Positions 29,847 through 41,250 of a DNA stretch of 64,000 nt are shown here, one piece after another (position 1 is the first letter of the stretch; each line of letters opens with the position of its first letter). Location: contig CAWGYD010000001.1 of NCBI GenBank assembly GCA_963826785.1, forward strand, positions 32,001-96,000, written 5' to 3'. Source of the DNA: an uncultured delta proteobacterium. Its GTDB lineage: Bacteria; Desulfobacterota; Desulfobacteria; Desulfobacterales; Desulfosalsimonadaceae. The position numbers were made by a program, and so were the translations under genes. The notes beneath the pieces are model-generated. The model saw only the letters and a list, made by a program, of their open reading frames with translations. It ran no database searches and was not told the origin of the DNA.

Positions 29847-30278
29847 TCATGCCGCTTTATGTTTTTTCGCTTTCATGGGATTGGGCCCCAGGGCCTTGAT
29901 CCGCTCATCCATCTCCTGTGCGTATTTTACAAACAGCGGTCCGTCGGAAGAGGAGAGATTGTACATCTGCACCCGCTCGCCGCCCACGCCCACGGTGTTT
30001 AGAATTTTCTGGGCCTGCTCCACGCGCTTGCGGGCACGGAAGTTGCCGAACTTGTAGTGGCAGTCGCCTTCCCGGCAGCCCACGATATAGACGCCGTCGG
30101 CGCCTTTTTCAATGGCCTTGAGCAGATGGATCACATCCACCTTCCCGGTGCAGGGCACCCGGATGATTTTGACGCTGGTGGGATAATTCAGTCTCATGGA
30201 ACCTGCCAGGTCCGCGGCCGAATACCCTCAGAAATTGCAGCAGAAGGCCAGAATCGTCGGTTTGAATGGGTCGTTCAT
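29847..30278 (-). CDS. mvhD: MvhD [2Fe-2S] subunit, selenoprotein (UGA codon 17 at 30228-30230)
   Basis: [58 protein letters not shown] overlaps the hdrL stop; UGA sits at a conserved Cys position. Confidence 0.92.
30198..30213 (-). promoter_or_regulatory. Candidate SECIS hairpin of mvhD
   Basis: GGACCU-GGC-AGGUUCC, 14 nt 3' of the UGA, with a G-starting loop and a possible bulged U. Confidence 0.65.
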
Positions 30279-33200
30279 ATCACTCCCTCCAGCAAGGATT
30301 CGATCTTGCTCAGTAGTTGCTCGTCTTCATACCAGTTCAGTTCAATGGCCTTGGCCGGGCATTCCGCGGCACAGGCCCCGCAGCCCTGGCACAGGGCATC
30401 GTCGATGAAGCTCACCCCCTCCTCGTTGATCTTCGGCACCCCGTAGGGGCAGGACCGCACGCAGATAAGGCAGGATGCGCACCGTTCCGGATCCACCTGG
30501 GCGGTCACCGCAGACAGCGTCAAAAAGGGCTGGGACAGCATGGTGGTGGCCCGGGAGGCCGCCGCCATGGCCTGGGCGATGGACTCGGTCAGAAGCTTGG
30601 GCGCATGGGCGGTGCCGCACAGGAAGACCCCTTCGGTTCCCATTTCCACCGGCCGGAGTTTGACATGGGCTTCGATGAAGTAATTGTCTTCATTGCGATT
30701 GAGCTTCATGATGTTGGCCAGCTCCTCGGTGTCCTCCGGCCGCATGCCCGCGCTCAGTGCCAGCAAATCCGCATCGACCGCCACCTTCCGGCCCAGGATA
30801 TGGTCGGTGAAGGTGACCTCCACCTTGTTGTCTGAGGCTTTCGCCACGGGTGGATCCTCCGGGTCGAAGCGGAAGAACATGACCCCCAGTTTCCGGGCCT
30901 CGGTGTAATAGTCTTCCAGCAGCCCGTAGGTCCGGATATCCCGGTACAGGATATACACCTGGGCGTCGGGATTCATCTTCTTGATGTGGATGGCATTCTT
31001 GACGGCGCTCTGGCAGCAGATCCGGGAACAGTTGGGGTTTTCCTCGCTTCTCGACCCCACGCACTGGATCATGACCACCTGCTCGATCCCGGTCATCGCG
31101 TTTTCGTCTTCCAGCCGTTCGGACAGCTCCAGCTGGGTGAGAACGCCCGGGTGCTGCCCGTAAAGATACTCCACAGGCTTGTATTCGGTTGCGCCGGTAG
31201 CCATCACCGCTACGCCGTGGTCGATCTTTTTGCTGACCATGTTCTGGCCCACCAGCACTTCGGTCTTGAAATTGCCTTTAAATCCGGAAAAGTCCACGAT
31301 GGTGGCATCGGTGAGCACCTCGATCCCGGTGTGGTCCGTCACCTTCCGGATGAGTTCGGCCAGGTAGGACTTGACATCCATCCCCTCGATGGTGTGGGTC
31401 AATCGGTTGGCCAGGCCGCCCAGTCGGGGCTCCTTTTCCACCAGCACCACTTCGTAACCCTGGTCTGCAATCCCCAAAGCGGCGGTCATGCCGGCCACAC
31501 CGCCGCCTACCACCAGGGCCCGGCTGGTCACCGGTATCTGGCGTTCGTGCAGCGGGTGCAGGGATGCGGCCCGGGCCACGGACATGCGCACCAGTTCCTT
31601 GGCTTTTTCCGTGGCCTCTATGGGGGAATCGGCATGCACCCAGGAATTCTGGTTCCGGATGTTGGCCATTTCGAACAGGTACTTGTTCAGCCCGCAGGCC
31701 TCCAGGGTATCCATGAAGATGGGTTCATGGGTCTTCGGCGTGCAGGAGGAGACCACCACCCGGTTGATGTTGTGCTCCTTGATCACCTCTTTCATGCCCT
31801 CCTGGGCATCCTGGCTGCAGGTGAACAGGTTTTCGCCCGCATACACCACGTGGGGCAGGGTTTCCGCATATGCTTTGACCGAAGGGACATCCACCACGCC
31901 GGCAATGTTGATGCCGCAGTCGCACACGAACACGCCGATGCGGGGCTCCTCGCCCTCCACCTCGATTTCCGCCGGCCGGGTGACCTCCCTGATCAGCGTG
32001 TTGCGGGAGGGGGCCAGGGTGCTGCCGGCCGCGCAGGCCGCGGCGCTGGCCTCGGTGATGGATGTCGGGATGTCCTTGGGCCCCTGGAAAATGCCGCAGG
32101 CGAATACGCCCGGGCGCGATGTATTCACCGGAGTGAAGGGATGGGTCTTGGCAAAGCGGTAATGGTTCAGATCGACATGGAGCCGGTTGGCCATTTCAAC
32201 GGTTTCGGGCGGGACCTGCAGGCCAACGGACAGCACCACCATGTCGAAATCCTCCATCTGCAGCTCGCCGGCTTCATCCACGTACCGCAGCCGCAGGTTG
32301 TCGTTTTCGATCACGTCAATGGTGTGAATCCGCGCTTTTTCAAACCGGACGCCGGACTGTTCTTTGGCCCGCAGGTAATATTTTTCATAATCCTTGCCGA
32401 AGGTCCGGATGTCCATGTTGAAGATCACCGTGTCCAGACCGTGATCCACGTGCGCCTTGGCGATCATGGCCTCCTTGATGGCATACATGCAGCACACTGA
32501 CGAACAGTAGCCGTTTCCGCACCGGTTGGTGTCCCGGGAGCCCACACACTGGAGCCAGGCGATCCGCTTGGGCTCGGTATGGTCCGAGGGCCGCACCAGG
32601 TGGCCCATGGTGGGGCCGGAAGCGGACAATATCCGCTCGAACTGGGCGCTGGTCAGCACATTGGCGGCCGACAGGTACTTGTAGGTGTCCTCCAGCACGG
32701 CGGGGTCGTAGGTTTCATTTCCGGGGCAGAGAATTACCGATCCGACGGGCAGGTCACGCTCCATCACCGTCTGTTCATGATCGACGGCGCCGGCCAGGCA
32801 GGCTTTCACACACTGGTAACATTCGGAGCAGATGCCGCATTTCAGACAGCGATCGGCCTCGGACTTGGCCTCTTCCTCGTTGTACCCATAGGAGACCTCC
32901 AGGAAATTGCATTCCCGGGCCTCGGGGTTCAGGCACCGGACCGGCACCCGGTCCTTGTGGGGTTCGCCCAGGGCATCCGGCTTTTCAAAGACCCAGTCCT
33001 TGTCCCGGCCTTCCCTGAGGTCCAGCCCATTGATGTAGCGGTGGATGCTTTCGGCCGCGGCTTTTCCAGAAGACACGGCATCCACCACCGACTTGGGCCC
33101 ATAGAAGGCGTCGCCGCCGGCAAACACCCATTCAAGCGAGGTCTGCAGGGTCTGCGGGTCCGCATCCAGCCCGCCCACCCGGGTCAAGGGGACGTTCTGG

Positions 33201-34738
33201 CCTTCAAAGTCGGAAGTGTGGGTCCCCTGTCCGATGGCGATGATCACGGTGTCCCCGAAAAAAGCCTGGCAGGCCGATTCATCGAATTGAGGGGAAAACC
33301 GCCCTTCTTCGTTGAACACGGCGGTGCAGGTCTTGAACTCGATGCCGGAAACCTTTTTGTTGTCGTTGATGAAAAAGGACTTGGGCCCGAACGAGTTGAC
33401 GATGTCGATGTCGCCTTCCAGCGCCTCTTCTATTTCATGTTCCCATGCCGGCATCTCCTCGCGCTTTTCCAGGCAGAGCATGGTCACATTTTCCGCCCCC
33501 TTGCGCTTGGCGGTCAGGGCCACGTCGATGGCCACGTTCCCGCCGCCGATCACCAGCACGTCTTTGCCGATGGAAACGTCTTTGCCCATTGCCGCGTCCC
33601 GGAGGAAATCCACCCCCTGGAGCACGCCCTCGGCATCTTCGTTCTCCACGCCGAGCTTCCGGCCGCTGTGCAGACCGATGGCCATGAAGACGGCGGCATA
33701 GCCGTCCGCCTTGAGGCTGTCGAAGGTGACATCCTGGCCGAAGGTGACCCCCGTCTGGATCTCTACCCCCATCTCCTCGATGGCCCTGATTTCATTTTTC
33801 AGGATGTCCCGGGGGAGCCGGTATTCAGGGATGCCCACGGCCATCATACCGCCGGCCACGGGCAGTTTTTCAAAAATGGTGACCCCGTATCCCCGCCTGG
33901 CCAGGCTATAGGCGGCCGCCAGGCCCGCAGGACCGGACCCGATCACGGCCACCTTTTCGGCGCGTTTTTCCTCGGGCACGGCGGGCATGAATGTTTCGCC
34001 CTGTTCGTTTTCCCAGTCCGCCAGGAAGCGGTGAAGTTCCCGGATAGCCAGCGGCTGATCGTAATCGCCCCGGGTGCAGACCCCTTCGCAGGGATGATGG
34101 CAGACCCGGCCGCAGACGCCGGGGAAGGGGTGCTCTTCCCGGAACAGTTCCACGGCCTCCTTGTATTTTCCCTGGTTGATCAGGGCGATATAGCCCTGGA
34201 TGCTGACGTGTGCGGGGCAGGTGGCCTTGCAGGGGGCGGTCCCGCGCTTGCTGATGGCATAGGCCCCCGGAATGGCCTGGGCGTATTTCTTGTAGGCGGC
34301 TTTCCGGCTGCCCATCCCCTTGTCCTGTTCGCTGGGAACCTCGATGGGGCACACCTTGGCGCACTCGCCGCAGGAGGTGCATTTGGAAAGGTCGATATAA
34401 CGGGGTTCCTGGCGGATATGGGCCTTGAAGTTGCCCGGTTCGCCGTCAAGCGTGAGCAGTTCGGTGTTGGTTAAAAGCTCGATATTCAGATGCCGGCCGA
34501 CCTCGACCAGTTTGGGCGAGATGACTCACATGGCGCAGTCGTTGGTGGGAAAGGTCTTGTCCAGCTGGGACATGATGCCGCCGATGGCGGATGTTTTTTC
34601 CACCAGGTATACATAATATCCGGAATTGGCCAGGTCGATGGCCGACTGCATCCCGGAGATGCCTGCGCCGACCACCATGACGGACCCCACCGGCTGGCTG
34701 CGTTCAGGGGTTTTCCCGGATTCTTTTGCCTGTTCCAT
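30275..34738 (-). CDS. hdrA: HdrL-type large heterodisulfide reductase A fusion (two HdrA units plus an inserted GltD-like NAD(P)H/FAD module), selenoprotein (UGA codon 71 at 34526-34528), 1487 aa
   Basis: [32 protein letters not shown] continues in frame into the 1359-aa [57 protein letters not shown]-terminal 2x[4Fe-4S]; AAGGAG RBS. Confidence 0.92.
34493..34510 (-). promoter_or_regulatory. Candidate SECIS hairpin of hdrL
   Basis: CUGGUCG-AGGU-CGGCCGG stem-loop 15 nt 3' of the UGA. Confidence 0.65.
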
Positions 34739-35106: not shown

Positions 35107-35297
35107 GGTCCGAGTTCTTCATGCATTTGGAAAGTGCTTATATCCTGAGTTGAATATGAAATATAACATCCGTTTCTACTTTGGCCAGATTCTATGGGCA
35201 TTTTAGTGTTTGACAGGGAATCGGGATTTTTTTTATAGTGCCAAAAAAGTCCCATTTTCTTTATCATGAGCACATACATCAAGCAGGAGAATGTCCC

Positions 35298-37763
35298 ATG
35301 AGCCAGAAAAGATTGAACAGATTCAAGCCATGTCTGATGGCCGGTGTCTTCACGGCCCTCTTTTTAATGTGCATTTCAGCGCCGCAGTCCGTCTATGGCT
35401 GAGGATCCAGCAATCTGACCGTGACTGTCAGTCCAGCAAACACCGGCCACGTCAAAGTCAATGGAACGGTTTATACGGGTTCATGCGGCTATAGCTCTGG
35501 TACCAAGCTAACCCTGGAGGGGGTTGCTTCCGAAAATTACAAGTTCGATCGGTGGGGCGGCGCCTTGAGCGGCAGCACCAATCCGACAACGCTTACTATG
35601 GATACCAGTAAAAGCGTTACTGCCTACTTCCGATTGAAGACCGAATCGGTCTCTCTGTCCGGTGCGAAAAACCTGATGGATACCCAAAAAGACCTGGTGG
35701 TTATCGATGTGAGGCCGGCCGCCGAATACAGCACCGCTCACATGTTGTGCGCCAGAAATTACATCTGGAATGCGGGGGCTAAAAATTTCACCACACCCCT
35801 GAATACGCTTAATTCCTTAAAATCTCAAAATATCCTGGTTTATGACCGCGATGGCACCAACAGCGACGATGCCGCCGACTATCTGGCCAACCAGGGTTTC
35901 AACTCGGTTTATTACATGACCAACGGTCTGGATGACTGGATGGCCGCGGGATACGAGACCTTTGCCACGGCCGCGGACAGCAGCATCTGCACCAGCCTTG
36001 CGCCCATGGCCTATGCCGGCACGGATGTGACGGTCAATGAAAATACCATGGTGACGTTGAGCGGTTCAGGGGCGGACCCGGACGGGGGTTCGGTACTTTT
36101 ATCTATTGGACCCAGGTGGAAGGGACCACCGTCGCCTTATCGAATCCCGCATCGGCAAAACCCACTTTTAGGGCCCCGGTACCATCCGGGGGAGATGACG
36201 AGTTGATTTTTCATCTCACGGTCAACCGATGACGAGGGCCAGAAAGATACGGACAGTGTCACCGTGAAGGTCTCCTGGATAAATGATCCGCCCACGGCGG
36301 TGGCAACGGCGGACAAAACCAATCCCCAGCCCGGGGACACGGTGACCCTTAACGGATTGGGATCTTCCGACCCGGAAAACGGGACCCTGACCTATAGTTG
36401 GGTGGCTACATCCGGTACTTTGATGATCAATCTATCAAACCCGAATTCAGCCAAACCTTCTTTTGTAGTGCCTCCGGGCACGTCTGCCGGCCGGTGGGTG
36501 GAATTTACGCTGACGGTAACCGACAACGGTGGCCCAAAGAGCGACATACAAAGTCAAAATCACGGTGGCCGGCAGTTCGAACCAGCCGCCGTCGGCCTGC
36601 GCGGGGGACAACAAGACGGTGGCCGAAGGAACCATGGTTCAGCTGGACGGCTCCTGCTCCACGGACCCGGATGACGGAATAAAGCAGTATACTTGGGCGC
36701 AGACCGGCGGGCCGTCGGTGTCGCTGTCTAACATTCATGCGGTTAAACCCACCTTTACCGCGCCGCAGGTAACCCAGAACACCGCCCTTAATTTCAAACT
36801 GACGGTTCAGGATAACGGCGGCCTGACCCACAGCAAACGGTTACGGTAACGGTCACGGACAGCGGCGGCACCTCCGGTACTCCCGCCCCCCCGAAAAATG
36901 TTTCCGCAACGGACAACACGCTTGCAGGCAGGGTTCGCATCGCCTGGGCAGCCTCATCAGGGGCTCAGTCATATGATGTCTACCGAGCAGACATGCCGGC
37001 CTGGACGGGGGCGGTGCTCAGCCGAATTGCTTCGTCGGTAACCGGGACCTCCTATGACGACATCACGGCAAAGTCCGGCAGCCTTTATTATTATTGGGTC
37101 AGGGCCCGAAATGCCAAGGGGATGAGTAAATTCAGCGCTTTTGACACCGGATTTTTTGGGGCCACCGGCAAATCGCCCGCCCGGCCGACTGAAGTCGAGG
37201 CCAGTGAAAACAGTAGTGCCAACAAGGTGACCATCACCTGGAAGGGGTCTGCCGAAGCCTTGGTATACGAGGTCTACAGAGCGGATATCCCGGTGTATCT
37301 GGGTGGAAAAATAAAAAAAATCGCCACCGTCAAGACGCTCACTTATGATGATGCCACCGCGGCCGCGGGCAATCGGTATTATTATTGGATTACCGCCCGC
37401 AATTCCTGGGGGATCAGTCATTACAGCCTTTTTGATACGGGATATTGTTGCGGGCCGGCCCAGTCGCCCCCCGATTCGCCTGCAGGCGTGACGGCCAGCA
37501 AGGGAACGGTAGCGGGCAAAGTCCATATTTCATGGAATGCCTCCGCCAAAACGACCGTTTATGAAATCTGGCGAGCCAACAAACCGGGCAGTCAGGGAGG
37601 CAGGCCGGTTCGCATCGGTAAGGTGGACAGCAATACCTTTTCATTCGATGATAATTTATTGTCCTGTAACGTAAATTATTTTTATTGGGTAACTGCCCGA
37701 AACCCATGGGGCGTGAGTCGTTATAGCAAGTATGCTACCGGGTACTGTGGTTCGCTGCCCTGA
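35298..37763 (+). CDS. Secreted multidomain protein 1: signal peptide, in-frame UGA (35400-35402, putative Sec), InlB B-repeat-like domain, rhodanese-like domain, 3 PKD-like repeats, 3 Fn3-like repeats; about 4 frameshifts
   Basis: AGGAGA RBS then ATG 35298; MSQKRLNRFKPCLMAGVFTALFLMCISAPQSVYG*GSSNLTVTVSPA in frame with ORF 35421; fragments 36264, 36529 and 36993 join via frameshifts near 36100, 36224, 36532 and 36836. Confidence 0.75.
35415..35431 (+). promoter_or_regulatory. Candidate SECIS hairpin of secreted protein 1
   Basis: CUGAC-CGUGACU-GUCAG; the loop starts 17 nt after the UGA. Confidence 0.55.
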
Positions 37764-37838
37764 TTAACCTTTGGTTAGGGCGCAGACAACCAGAAAATAA
37801 TTAATAATTGAATACAAACCGATCACTTTAGAGAGACA

Positions 37839-37876
37839 AATTCCCTGCGGGCACATGCACGCGGGGAATTTTTTTT
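37839..37876 (+). terminator. Intrinsic terminator after secreted protein 1
   Basis: AATTCCCTGCG...CGCGGGGAATT followed by a T-run. Confidence 0.75.
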
Positions 37877-38024
37877 GCCGCATCAAAGGAAATCGGCGAA
37901 ACTTTCTTTCTGGCTTAAAAATTGCATCTTTATACCGCCTATAGTGGATGCGCTAAATCCCATTCATCGCAATTGAGCTGTCGGCTTCATTCAAGCAATT
38001 TGCGGGGGAATCGGGTTTTTTTTA

Positions 38025-38055
38025 TTGACAAGTGCCTGCTACAGTGTGGCAGTAT
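38025..38055 (+). promoter_or_regulatory. Promoter-like motif TTGACAAG-N12-TGTGGCAGTAT (copy 2)
   Basis: Same architecture and spacing as 35076-35106. Confidence 0.55.
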
Positions 38056-38196
38056 CACAAACTGATATGGTTGCAAATTTTGACAAGACCGTATTCAAAA
38101 GAGGACACTTTTATCATTGGCGCGGTAATCTGTTTGTTCTAACGGGATGAGCAGTTATCGCATTTATTGGTAATCTTATGTACCAGGAGACAGTAA

Positions 38197-41100
38197 TTGA
38201 AGATGTTTGCAAATTCCGCTTCACCTTTCCGTTTCGCTTTCAAGGCATGCTGCCTGATCATGTTCACAGTGACGGCCCTGACCCTCTCTATTCCTGCACC
38301 CGCAGGCGCCGGCTGAGGCGGCCTGGCGCTGACCGTGGATGTCAGCCCCGCAAGGGCCGGTAAAATCAAGATCACTTACATAGACAGCAACCTGGTCACA
38401 AAGGTCTTAATCCCGACCAGTTATCCATCCGAAACCTACACTTGTATCAATTATGGCAGCACGGTCATACTGGAGGCGACGCCCTCGTCAGGGTACCGCT
38501 TCGATCACTGGGGCGGATCCGTTACCGGCAGCACAAATCCGGTGAAATTCGTGCTCAAGGAAGCCAGAGAGATCACGGCCTATTTTACCGGAAGCGCAAC
38601 CACTTCAATTACGGCGAACGCCGGGCCCGACCAGAACGTCAGCGAGAACCAGCAGGTGACCCTCAATGGAACAGGGTCGACCGGAACCATTTCTCGCTAC
38701 AGCTGGACCCAGACAAGTGGTCCGACGGTGGCGCTTTCAGGTTCTACATCCAGCCGCCCCACCTTTACCGCACCCTATGTGCAGGAGGGCGGAGCAACCC
38801 TCACCTTTCGCCTGACGGTGAGCAACAACCTGGGCCAGACAGATACCGACAGCGTCAACGTGCATGTGGCCTGGCAGGATCAGCTGACCGCATCCGCCGG
38901 ACCCGACCAGAGCGTCAGCGGGGGGCAGCAGGTGACCCTCAATGGAACCGGATCGACCGGAACCATTGCCCGCTACAGCTGGACCCAGACAAGCGGCCCG
39001 ACCGTTGTTCTTTCGGGTTCCACATCCAGCCGCCCCACCTTTACCGCACCTTATGTGCAGGCAGCCGGGGCAACGCTTACTTTTCTGCTGACGGTGAGCG
39101 ACAATCTGGGCCATACAGACTCGGACAGTGTCAATGTGCGTGTCGCTTCGCAGAATCTGAACCTGGCGGCAGCGGCCGGACCCGATCAGTCCGTCGAATC
39201 CGGTGCAACCGTTGTCCTGGATGGATCAAACTCCTCGCCCCAGAGCGACATCGTCTCATATCAATGGGTGATGATCGACAACAACTTAAACCTTTCCGGC
39301 ATCGATCTGACCAGCAAGTGGGGAGAGGGAATGGTGTCTTTTCTGGCACCCGAGCAGAGCGGTTGGATTGAATTTGAACTGACTGTCAGCGGTGTGGACG
39401 GCAGCAGCGACAGCGACACGGTTGTGGTCACGATCACTCAAACCAGCGGCGGCAGCGGGCTCGCAGCGAATGCCGGATCGGACCAGGCCGCCCTCATCGG
39501 GACCATGGTCATGCTCGATGGATCCGGTTCCCAGGGGGACAACCTGCAATATCAGTGGCGTTAGATCCCCGAAGCCACGGTCACCTTGTCCGGGGGAAAT
39601 GAATGGACGGGGATTTCCCTGCAGAAAACCCCGACTTTTACCGCCCCTGAAACCGGGCAGCCGCAGCAAACGCTGACCTTTGAGCTGAAGGTGAAAGATA
39701 CGGTCAGCGGACAGACGAGCATCGATACCGTGGATATCCTGATCAACAGCCAGGCTTACGTGGACAGCAATGCATCGCCGACCGCAGATGCGGGTCCGGA
39801 TCTTCAAGTCGCCCCCGGTGCGGTGGTAAAGCTTGATGCAAGCGGTTCCACAGATCCCGAAAACAGGATCATCTCCTATCTCTGGACGGTCCAATCCGGT
39901 TCGGCTGCTATCCGGCTGTCGGATGACAAGGCAATCGACCCGGTCTTTACGGCGCCGGCTGCATCCGGTTCGGCTGAATTCAAGTTGACCGTCATCGATG
40001 ATGCCGGAAAAAGCGATACGGACATGGTGACGGTCGACTGGGCCAATCAACCGCCCTCCGCGAACGCGGGAACGGATCAGACAGTTACCGAAGGAAGCAT
40101 GGTGACCATGGACGGTTCGGGTTCCTCGGATATCGATGACGGCATCGTCTCCTATGAATGGGTCCAGACAGGGGGCCTTTCCGTCGCGCTCACGGGTAAA
40201 GACACCGCCCAACCCACTTTCAGTGCGCCGATGATCACCACCGGGCAAACGGCGGCATTGTCCTTCCGCCTGACGGTTAAAGACCGCCTCGGACAGTCGG
40301 ATACGGACCAGGTGATTGTCACCGTCACCCGGGACGGTATGCCGCCAATCGCAGATGCGGGTCCGGACCGCACGGTCAACGAAGGCGATGTCATTGAGCT
40401 TGACGGGACGGAATCCATGGATCCGGACGGAAATATCGTCAGCTATCAATGGAAACAGGTTCACGGCCCGGTGGCCGGGATTTCAGACGAAACATCCGCA
40501 AAAGCCTCCTTTATCGCCAGGCGGTCAGGGTGGACCAGCTACCGCTGACCTTTGATTTGACGGTAGTGGACAACGAGGGACTGAGTTCTTCAGACCGGGT
40601 GATCATCACCATTGTCAATGTGGGGGAATTGCCCGTGGCGAATGCCGGGGAGGACCAGGCGGTTTACGAGCGTAAAACCGTCACCCTGGACGCATCCCGG
40701 TCAAAAGACAGGGACGGCCTCATCGAGCGGTATAAATGGAGCCAGATCACCGGTCCCACCGTCGTCTTTTCGGATTCCGAGGCCATGCAGCCCACCTTTG
40801 ACGCTCCCATCATCGGGGAAAATCCGGTGGATCTCGAATTCCAGCTCATGGTCGAGGACAACGACGGACTCAAAGGATTCGACCGGGTGAAGATCACCGT
40901 GAACCCGACCACCCAGGCCCCTGTGGCCGATGCAGGCCCGGATCAGACCGTGAAAGAAGGGGAAACAGTGGTCCTCGACGGGTCGGGATCTTCGGATCCG
41001 GATGACGGGATTATCAGTTATAAATGGACCCAGGCGGCCGGTTCGGTCACGGTTGAACTTTCCGACGAAACCGCCCCGCAGCCGACATTTGAGGCCCCGA

Positions 41101-41250
41101 AAATTAGCGGCGAAGACGTTGCGCTGAGCTTCAAGCTGGTGGCAGAGGATTTCAGCGGTCAGCAGGGGGTGGATACGTGTGGTCACCGTCACCGATAAAT
41201 CCGATGGCGGAGGCGGCGGCGGATGCTTCATCTCGACTTTGATGGAGTAA
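38197..41250 (+). CDS. Secreted multidomain protein 2: signal peptide, in-frame UGA (38314-38316, putative Sec), InlB B-repeat-like domain, 9 PKD-like repeats, C-terminal GGGGGGCFISTLME tail; internal TAG at 39562 and frameshifts near 40520 and 41178
   Basis: AGGAGA RBS then TTG 38197 or ATG 38203; MFANSASPFRFAFKACCLIMFTVTALTLSIPAPAGAG*GGLALTVDVSPA in frame with ORF 38335; repeats of AxAGxDQxVxxGxxVxLDGSxS..YxWxQ..P.FxAP. Confidence 0.78.
38328..38346 (+). promoter_or_regulatory. Candidate SECIS hairpin of secreted protein 2
   Basis: GCUGAC-CGUGGAU-GUCAGC; the loop starts 17 nt after the UGA. Confidence 0.6.
38620..39145 (+). repeat. Intragenic tandem duplication, 276-bp period (PKD-like repeats 1 and 2)
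   Basis: Near-identical DNA and protein: QQVTLNGTGSTGTI.RYSWTQTSGPTV.LSGSTSSRPTFTAPYVQ occurs twice. Confidence 0.85.

Follow-up and report, generated by a model that had tools for sequence, protein, structure and literature searches.

Two paralogous genes in a 64,000-nucleotide stretch of DNA from an uncultured delta proteobacterium of the family Desulfosalsimonadaceae (assembly GCA_963826785.1, contig CAWGYD010000001.1, positions 32,001 to 96,000 of the forward strand; hereafter the window) carry an in-frame TGA directly behind a signal peptide. Judged by comparison with their homologues, gene 1 (35298..37763, plus strand) and gene 2 (38203..41250, plus strand) probably encode exported surface repeat proteins in which this UGA is decoded as selenocysteine (Sec; U in peptides) via the SelB and selenocysteine insertion sequence (SECIS) route; that the TGA is decoded as selenocysteine we consider very likely. 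The evidence comprises a UGA conserved among the homologues, a hairpin tied to this UGA, homologues with Cys at the same site, a signal-peptide context and the number of cysteines in the domain that follows. The genome has no other copies of the family, and the heads of gene 1 and gene 2 share 36% identity.

The in-frame TGA and the hairpin behind it

Gene 1 begins with an ATG at 35298, placed 7 nucleotides (nt) behind an AGGAGA ribosome binding site (RBS; 35285..35290), and its first 34 codons (35298..35399, plus strand) encode a signal peptide with a basic n-region and a hydrophobic core that ends in ...SVYG. The in-frame TGA follows 34 codons past the ATG (35400..35402; codon context GGC-TGA-GGA), and when it is read as selenocysteine the peptide continues as U-G-S-S-N-LTVTVSPA. 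Gene 2 begins with an ATG at 38203, 12 nt behind its own AGGAGA RBS (38185..38190; both RBS were read from the letters), and has a signal peptide of 37 codons (38203..38313) ending in ...PAPAGAG and a TGA at 38314..38316 in the context GGC-TGA-GGC, past which the peptide reads U-G-G-L-A-LTVDVSPA. Behind each TGA lies a SECIS-like hairpin on the same strand. In gene 1 it occupies 35415..35431 and is formed by the arms CTGAC (35415-35419) and GTCAG (35427-35431) around the loop CGTGACT (CUGAC, CGUGACU and GUCAG in the RNA), and in gene 2 it occupies 38328..38346 and has 6 bp, with GCTGAC (38328-38333) and GTCAGC (38341-38346) enclosing CGTGGAT (GCUGAC, GUCAGC and CGUGGAU in the RNA). The stem begins 12 nt, and the loop 17 nt, past the TGA in both genes. 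All of these details, together with the lone Cys of the domain that follows, were found where an initial annotation of this DNA had placed them.

Conservation of the TGA was followed in a similarity search with residues 1-221 of gene 1 against 61 genomes, i.e., the window's own and 60 relatives. The results showed exactly one TGA in 20/20 matches beginning at query residue 29 or earlier, and no TGA in matches beginning past the site, apart from three rhodanese-only matches with a TGA of their own. The TGAs of the homologues share one alignment column, which also holds those of gene 1 and gene 2 and lies between the signal peptide and (G)-x-P-x-LTVxVSPA. In a second search a profile made from 15 heads was run against 401 genomes of the order; of the listed matches beginning no later than profile position 16, 32 hold one TGA and six hold none, and the 32 span at least eight families of the order Desulfobacterales. 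Two of the six are paralogues, L041 and L042, that have Cys in the column (AEAA-C-QCELHV and AAAT-C-YDRLTV) and each adjoin a Sec copy; two more have neither Cys nor Sec at the site, and the last two are true lipoproteins with a Gly linker. Cys forms of the family are rare. Trp or Arg, either of which would have spoken for another decoding of the codon, occupied the site in none of the homologues inspected, where TGA, or in two cases Cys, was found.

The spread of the family was assessed with a hairpin-based DNA pattern scanned over 185,579 species, one genome each, and the loci obtained in this way are thus selected for the hairpin. The scan returned 65 loci, which the protein profile divided into 45 family members and 20 chance matches. 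By their record titles, the members belong to Desulfobacteraceae, Desulfococcaceae, Desulfosudaceae, Desulfosalsimonadaceae, Desulfonema and a 'Syntrophaceae' metagenome-assembled genome (MAG), and also to five Dehalococcoidia or Dehalococcoidales MAGs; Desulfonema limicola and Desulfococcus MAGs are among the titles that the scan returned. The Dehalococcoidia members have a Sec head with the same hairpin, and the 17-nt SECIS core is nearly identical across the two phyla. Dozens of homologues repeat the TGA column together with the hairpin and the peptide around it, which goes far beyond chance; from the two paralogues alone, the initial annotation had argued that independent errors at one aligned site are unlikely.

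The statistics on the hairpin were restricted to genes found by protein similarity, a set that is independent of the hairpin, and the loci of the pattern scan were excluded from them. In this set the hairpin is kept in 25/25 Sec genes, in the form CTGAC-CGTGnnn-GTCAG; L029, which is one of the 25, retains the stem by means of compensatory changes (TTGAC...GTCAA), and the stem returned by RNAalifold has 6 bp, two of which are compensatory pairs that L029 alone contributes. At the homologous site of non-Sec homologues the hairpin was found in 0/7, and in one of these, L048, the peptide LTVNVS is spelled CTT ACA GTG AAT GTG TCA. Elsewhere in the family genes LTV is written as CTG-ACC-GTG in just 5/75 cases. 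Because the non-Sec homologues are without the hairpin and the control LTV codons seldom match it, the nucleotide constraint follows the UGA and not the protein. The caveat raised initially, that the hairpin might be a mere by-product of conserved codons, is thereby answered, as non-Sec homologues with the same peptide lose the hairpin. The spacing from UGA to hairpin is 12 nt and reaches 21 in variants, and the hairpin of gene 2 belongs to the minimum-free-energy fold of its 61 nt downstream. Both the spacing and the G-U at positions 2-3 of the loop agree with E. coli fdhF and with the bSECISearch models. We propose that this hairpin of 5-6 bp (CUGAC, loop CGUGNNN, GUCAG), located 12 nt past the UGA and inside the L-T-V-x-V-S codons, would act as the SECIS. 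No Rfam family was matched at either hairpin; separately, a sub-threshold Rfam match to RsaE at 37838-37930 was taken as chance.

Export, anchoring and the cysteine of the first domain

Export was analysed in 54 non-redundant members, for which the cut site was assigned by rule. The segment before U opens with basic residues and then has an extended uncharged core; the medians are 35 residues for its length, 22 for the longest uncharged stretch and 3 for the number of K/R residues. The (-3,-1) rule is satisfied in 52/54 members if the cut is placed directly ahead of U or one position further upstream, in agreement with the original suggestion of an exported protein with Sec at +1/+2, and the endings before U include ARA|U, VRA|U, AHA|U, ANA|U and AEA|GU. 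Past U, G is present at +1 in 45/54 and P at +3 in 28/54. Because the residues before U fit signal peptidase I and not a lipobox, Sec probably holds position 1 or 2 of the mature chain, as would result if a Sec-type signal peptide were cut by signal peptidase I at an AxA-like site to leave a mature chain that starts with U-G-x-P-x-LTVxVSPA. The cut site is in this sense a predicted one, as are the selenium-sulfur bond and any chemistry considered below.

The downstream domains of gene 1 and gene 2 are of extracellular types (Pfam). In gene 1 the signal peptide and U are followed by a divergent InlB B-repeat (35403..35640; Pfam Flg_new_2, PF18998; E 2.4e-8) with a single Cys in GSCGY, by a rhodanese-like domain (35664..35945; PF00581, E 4.8e-12) with the loop YDRDGTNS, where Asp takes the place of the catalytic Cys, and a Cys in HMLCARNY, and then by about three PKD repeats of the K319L type and three Fn3-like repeats. 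In gene 2 the order is signal peptide, U, a B-repeat with one Cys (in YTCIN), about ten K319L-type PKD repeats and a Gly6-CFISTLME tail ahead of a TAA stop. The PF18998 bit scores are 34.3 for gene 1 and 36.1 for gene 2, with a gathering cut-off of 23.6. An AlphaFold2 model of the gene 1 head (overall predicted local distance difference test score, pLDDT, 79.4) reproduces the B-repeat and rhodanese folds, the B-repeat being composed of seven strands with a block pLDDT of 88-96. An intact orthologue of gene 1, L101, encodes 809 aa with the domain order unchanged. Taken with the conserved TGA, the hairpin, the Cys homologues and the export context, this supports the core of the initial annotation, namely an exported, Sec-headed protein on a PKD/Fn3 stalk.

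The C-terminal ends were compared across 42 complete members. A Gly/Ser-rich linker followed by C-F-[IVL]-x-S/T-x-x and the stop ends 18/42, gene 2 among them (GGGGGGCFISTLME); 7/42 have a common ...LDGLPxx end, and 4/42, all from Dehalococcoidia (L071, L104, L119 and L128), have a C-terminal transmembrane helix and behind it a basic tail. The orientation of the protein can be read from the helix-anchored forms, which would make the Sec head the distal tip: Sec would be carried on a short tail ahead of the InlB-type B-repeat at the far end of the PKD/Fn3 stalk, and the other end of the stalk would be the anchor or a sorting tail. The C-F-[IVL] tail, which lies at 41203-41250 in the window and recurs in L015, L024, L074, L089, L091, L096, L102, L106, L115 and L127, is present even in members of 150 aa, such as one that consists of signal peptide, U, B-repeat, an acidic linker and GGG-CFIQSAF, and contains no transmembrane stretch. 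It matched no NCBIfam sorting-signal model, and it is loosely like the start of MYXO-CTERM or a CaaX box.

The cysteines of the first domain were then counted. Among Sec-adjacent B-repeats exactly one Cys is present in 45/50, and a Cys is located in the core or beside U in 49/50, whereas among the other B-repeats at the same loci (n = 62) two Cys are present in 34 and one Cys in 9. The two-Cys repeats usually have them in a CxxxC knuckle between strands 2 and 3. The Sec-headed repeat thus shares with ordinary InlB B-repeat (PF18998) proteins the domain itself, the LTVxV first strand and the F/Y-x-F-x-x-W core, but differs in having one Cys and a Sec (45/50) where the ordinary repeats have no Cys or a CxxxC pair (two Cys in 34/62). 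In the first alignment, two members without the usual T-C Cys place a Cys near Sec, as U-C in L021 and as U-A-A-C in L029. An odd Cys and a Sec make a pair, and for this reason the counts (single Cys in 45/50 versus 9/62) favor the Se-S pair that the initial annotation had suggested; on these comparisons we lean towards Sec being paired with the lone Cys as a selenenylsulfide. In such a protein Sec would bond the single Cys of the first domain and replace the CxxxC disulfide knuckle of ordinary B-repeats, and the pair might serve as a reduction-resistant staple in sulfidic water or, alternatively, as a place where (poly)sulfide, thiols or thiophilic metals are exchanged. Two long tandem B-repeat proteins, L047 and L053 (in G081 and G111), have a C-P-x-x-C knuckle between strands 2 and 3 in each repeat, and this knuckle is likely the ancestral disulfide, halved in the Sec-headed domain.

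Selenocysteine machinery, interrupted frames and competing explanations

Several observations weigh against the proposed reading. The window copies are both interrupted: gene 1 follows the frame path 0>2>0>1>0, with shifts near 36120, 36215, 36560 and 36830, and gene 2 is broken by an in-frame TAG at 39562-39564 and by frame shifts near 40520 and 41190. The long downstream open reading frame (ORF) that the initial annotation had placed in frame with each TGA is consequently discontinuous in both genes, and in this genome the two copies may fail to give full-length proteins. In the genome, selA is split into two frames by a frameshift (C3:45278-46644), and neither selB nor selD was found in the 4.43-Mb, 11-contig, 87.8%-complete assembly. 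In the search of 61 genomes, two weak matches in G045, from query residues 30 and 33, are without a TGA. As to the hairpin, single-sequence folding is no better than that of shuffles (z of +1.0 for gene 1 and -0.8 for gene 2), and the hairpin is short, with a stem that is nearly invariant and covariation that comes from one sequence. Finally, the position of the partner Cys varies (residues ~28-39, ~68-74, or beside U), and in L082 no Cys lies closer to U than 190 residues.

The claim that the genome recodes UGA stands in part. A canonical, intact tRNA-Sec is encoded at C2:46605-46702. The hdrL-like neighbour gene, which is not of the family and lies on the minus strand at 30275..34738 (the start near 34738 is approximate), holds the in-frame TGA expected of it at 34526-34528, in the context NDCAMU-VISPK, and a 1077-aa fdh-like frame contains just one TGA and is otherwise intact. 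The tRNA-Sec, the TGA-bearing hdrL and fdh and a selA, though frameshifted, speak for recoding, and the failure to find selB and selD in the assembly speaks against it. Relatives that are at least 90% complete have selB in 30/30 cases and selD in 29/30, and each full-length selD match in relatives has its own TGA. The failure to find selB and selD, together with the split selA, may reflect incompleteness or the onset of loss of the Sec trait. Several further observations were made on these genes. The in-frame TGA makes ORF lists begin hdrL too late, at GTG 34354, and hdrL adjoins family genes in 9/45 loci. The Sec-type fdhA at C3:220975-222977 is in three frames, with 2 TGA in the first piece, and another molybdopterin oxidoreductase match (C3:410418-412364) holds an in-frame TAG. 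A 96-nt 'tRNA-Trp(cca)' called by aragorn at C1:229358-229453 is probably a false call, as its acceptor stem is mismatched and its extra arm is long and unstructured. No tRNA-Pyl, which would bear on the TAG of gene 2, was called by aragorn in the genome; pyl genes were not searched.

The explanation that best survives beside the proposed one is that the two copies are dead or dying, with breaks that are true mutations and are possibly tied to decay of the Sec machinery, the family itself being real; we regard this as possible, but as the less probable state of affairs. The background of frame breaks was taken from 71 orthologous genes (91 kb) compared with two relatives, and it amounted to 5 junctions in the 91 kb, or ~0.05/kb, one of them in selA and three clustered at C5:36-45 kb. 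Gene 1 and gene 2 together have 6 frameshifts in ~5.5 kb (four in gene 1 and two in gene 2) plus the TAG, ~20x this background, and in the same genome rpoB and rpoC are unbroken and the neighbouring hdrL, apbE and mltF-like genes have open frames. The frameshifted selA, the two frameshifts in the Sec-type fdhA and the failure to find selB and selD when nearly all good relatives have them also favor decay. Against decay, frame breaks are scattered in ordinary genes too, in 4/70 besides selA with three of them clustered, which resembles consensus error; several of the breaks in gene 1 and gene 2 fall at short homopolymers; the frames come back to zero in both genes and domain-like sequence goes on past each shift; hdrL and the 1077-aa fdh-like frame keep their single TGA and are otherwise intact; and the genome is only 87.8% complete. 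The breaks in gene 1 and gene 2 would be due either to decay or to local errors in the consensus, as may plausibly arise when variable surface-protein genes are assembled from a metagenome. A test for a selD deletion by synteny with G013 showed that the gene order differs between the two genomes. At G000:C5:36445-44519, three adjacent ordinary genes each have a frame break relative to the relatives, and this region may be a local patch of poor consensus.

It is also conceivable, though in our estimate unlikely, that Sec stays a free selenol or selenolate at the stalk tip, where it would capture thiophilic metals, sulfur or polysulfide, or selenium, or bond another molecule, the lone Cys being incidental or resolving. 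A partner Cys that has no fixed position and is absent in one member would fit this, as would the conservation of U-G-x-P, which exceeds the needs of a staple. The rhodanese-like domain points the same way. It follows the Sec head in 27/54 members by a crude motif search, and Foldseek assigned that of gene 1 a rhodanese fold with probability 1.0 to GlpE, YgaP and BH2092, returning rhodanese domains only. The active-site loop of rhodaneses is C-x-x-G-x-R-S/T, with the catalytic Cys first. The Desulfobacterales members have Asp in place of this Cys, gene 1 and 13 orthologues sharing the loop YD(Q/R)xGxxS, and the canonical C-x-x-G-x-R-S loop is present only in L122 (Dehalococcoidia) and L108. 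An alignment of the orthologues showed that the Cys of H-x-L-C-A-x-N-Y is invariant and that the Cys of I-C-T-S, past the domain, is nearly so. On the other hand, the one-Cys rule is hard to explain without pairing, gene 2 (by Pfam) and many other members have no rhodanese domain, and no metal-binding motif was found, nor a dedicated partner gene among the recurrent neighbours, which are hdrL, a metF-like gene and others, housekeeping genes among them, typical of shared synteny. A wider proposal, which we hold to be doubtful, is that a selenol at the tips of cell-anchored stalks of strict anaerobes in two phyla (Desulfobacterales, Dehalococcoidia) would be a dedicated extracellular device for handling chalcogens or metals. 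Sec would swing between a resolving Cys and external substrates (e.g., polysulfide, S0, thiols or thiophilic metals), and many members would employ beside it a rhodanese-like cradle without a catalytic Cys of its own. If this were true, the family would perform selenium-based chemistry outside the cell, beyond a structural staple. Among the relatives, lone rhodanese matches with one in-frame TGA are located at G056:C143:2691-2972, G037:C1:312966-313211 and G047:C8:38174-38467; these are probably members of already listed Sec-rhodanese families.

The initial annotation had also offered, as a more speculative option, that G-U-G mimics a lipobox, so that Lgt would attach an acyl group to the selenol and LspA would cleave ahead of U to give a seleno-lipoprotein. 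This is very improbable. The SVYG-C of gene 1 does pass the PROSITE-like rule when Cys is substituted for U, as do 11/54 members, and true lipoprotein B-repeat proteins exist in the order. A strict lipobox is present in just 2/54 members, however, and D, E, K, R or H occurs within three residues before U in 23/54; endings such as ARA|U, VRA|U, AHA|U and ANA|U are classic sites of signal peptidase I, and the Dehalococcoidia members are anchored via their C-terminal helix. The true lipoproteins, moreover, differ in layout, with a Gly linker and no UGxP. The two versions concerned, L152 and L153 (G071 and G319), consist of a lipobox (ITGC-G8 or MIGC-SG6), a Gly run and a B-repeat, and this layout is a separate way to attach the B-repeat.

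That the TGA is a plain stop, with a short signal-peptide-like ORF followed by a separate gene with a downstream start, is scarcely credible: gene callers do annotate the genes so and seven database relatives begin at assorted internal codons past the TGA, but those starts are unconserved (MTVSP, MKVNG, MNGTV, VNVSP, MEAVP, MLTVT), the first in-frame start past the TGA in both genes is a GTG inside the hairpin, extracellular PKD/Fn3 proteins require a signal peptide, the frame, distance and hairpin are conserved across phyla, and the Cys homologues read straight through.

Relation to known selenoproteins and significance

Decoding of the UGA as selenocysteine would place the family among genes recoded by SelB and a SECIS. 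Recoding of this kind is known from E. coli fdhF, and in the bSECISearch consensus the UGA is followed by a stem-loop within the coding sequence. The family is like such genes in its in-frame UGA and stem-loop, in a spacer of 11-12 nt, in the G-U near the 5' side of the loop, and in the tRNA-Sec and selA of this genome and the selB and selD of relatives. It is unlike them in a helix of just 5-6 bp with a 7-nt loop, which is near-invariant across two phyla and located inside the LTVxVS peptide. Most of the known selenoproteins of bacteria, by contrast with this family, are redox enzymes that have Sec in their active site.

Two described selenoproteins were compared with the family. SaoB of the SAO system is an exported selenoprotein with a signal peptide, a truncation at the TGA in databases and a Sec adjoining Cys (Haft, bioRxiv 10.1101/2022.07.06.499078). 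Signal peptides and TGA-truncated database entries are found in the family as well, but the Sec of SaoB is at position 72, in a CU motif within the binding pocket of the binding protein of an ABC transporter, whereas the Sec of the family would be residue 1-2 of a mature stalk protein, and the folds are unrelated. MccSep is described as a multihaem selenoprotein of sulfur-respiring anaerobes with Sec in a catalytic setting (Sci Adv 2026, PMC13510729). It resembles the family in being a selenoprotein of anaerobic sulfur-cycle bacteria, and differs in being a multihaem cytochrome enzyme; Pfam found no haem protein among the domains of gene 1 and gene 2.

In public protein sets the family is present only as signal-less fragments past the TGA, which start at assorted codons. 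NCBIfam has no model for the Sec head, and returned rhodanese and PKD-repeat look-alikes only. No trace of the family was found in passages of the Haft 2022 preprint (bioRxiv 10.1101/2022.07.06.499078), by term searches of the main text of a 2026 AEM review and of a 2022 Biomolecules review, in what full-text literature searches returned, or, for deep-Sep, in the new families of section 7 and in Table S2; a term search of the main text of BSepDB gave none either, and the 111-family list of that resource (Table S2) may include it. The family is real, widespread in sediment anaerobes and apparently uncatalogued.

In the proposed reading, Sec heads an exported, non-enzymatic-looking surface repeat protein, where it seemingly stands in for half a disulfide. 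Both the export and the selenium of the family are invisible in annotation, and because the genes are stored as signal-less fragments, selenoproteome counts for sediment sulfate reducers and Dehalococcoidia would be too low. The hairpin, with its 5 bp and 7-nt loop, is a useful test case for SECIS finders that expect longer stems. A natural series of Sec, Cys and no-Cys forms, combined with a tiny and sharply defined SECIS, provides an experimental handle on extracellular selenium use by anaerobes, for which the candidate reasons to spend selenium outside the cell would be reduction-resistant cross-links in sulfidic water or sulfur and metal chemistry at the surface.

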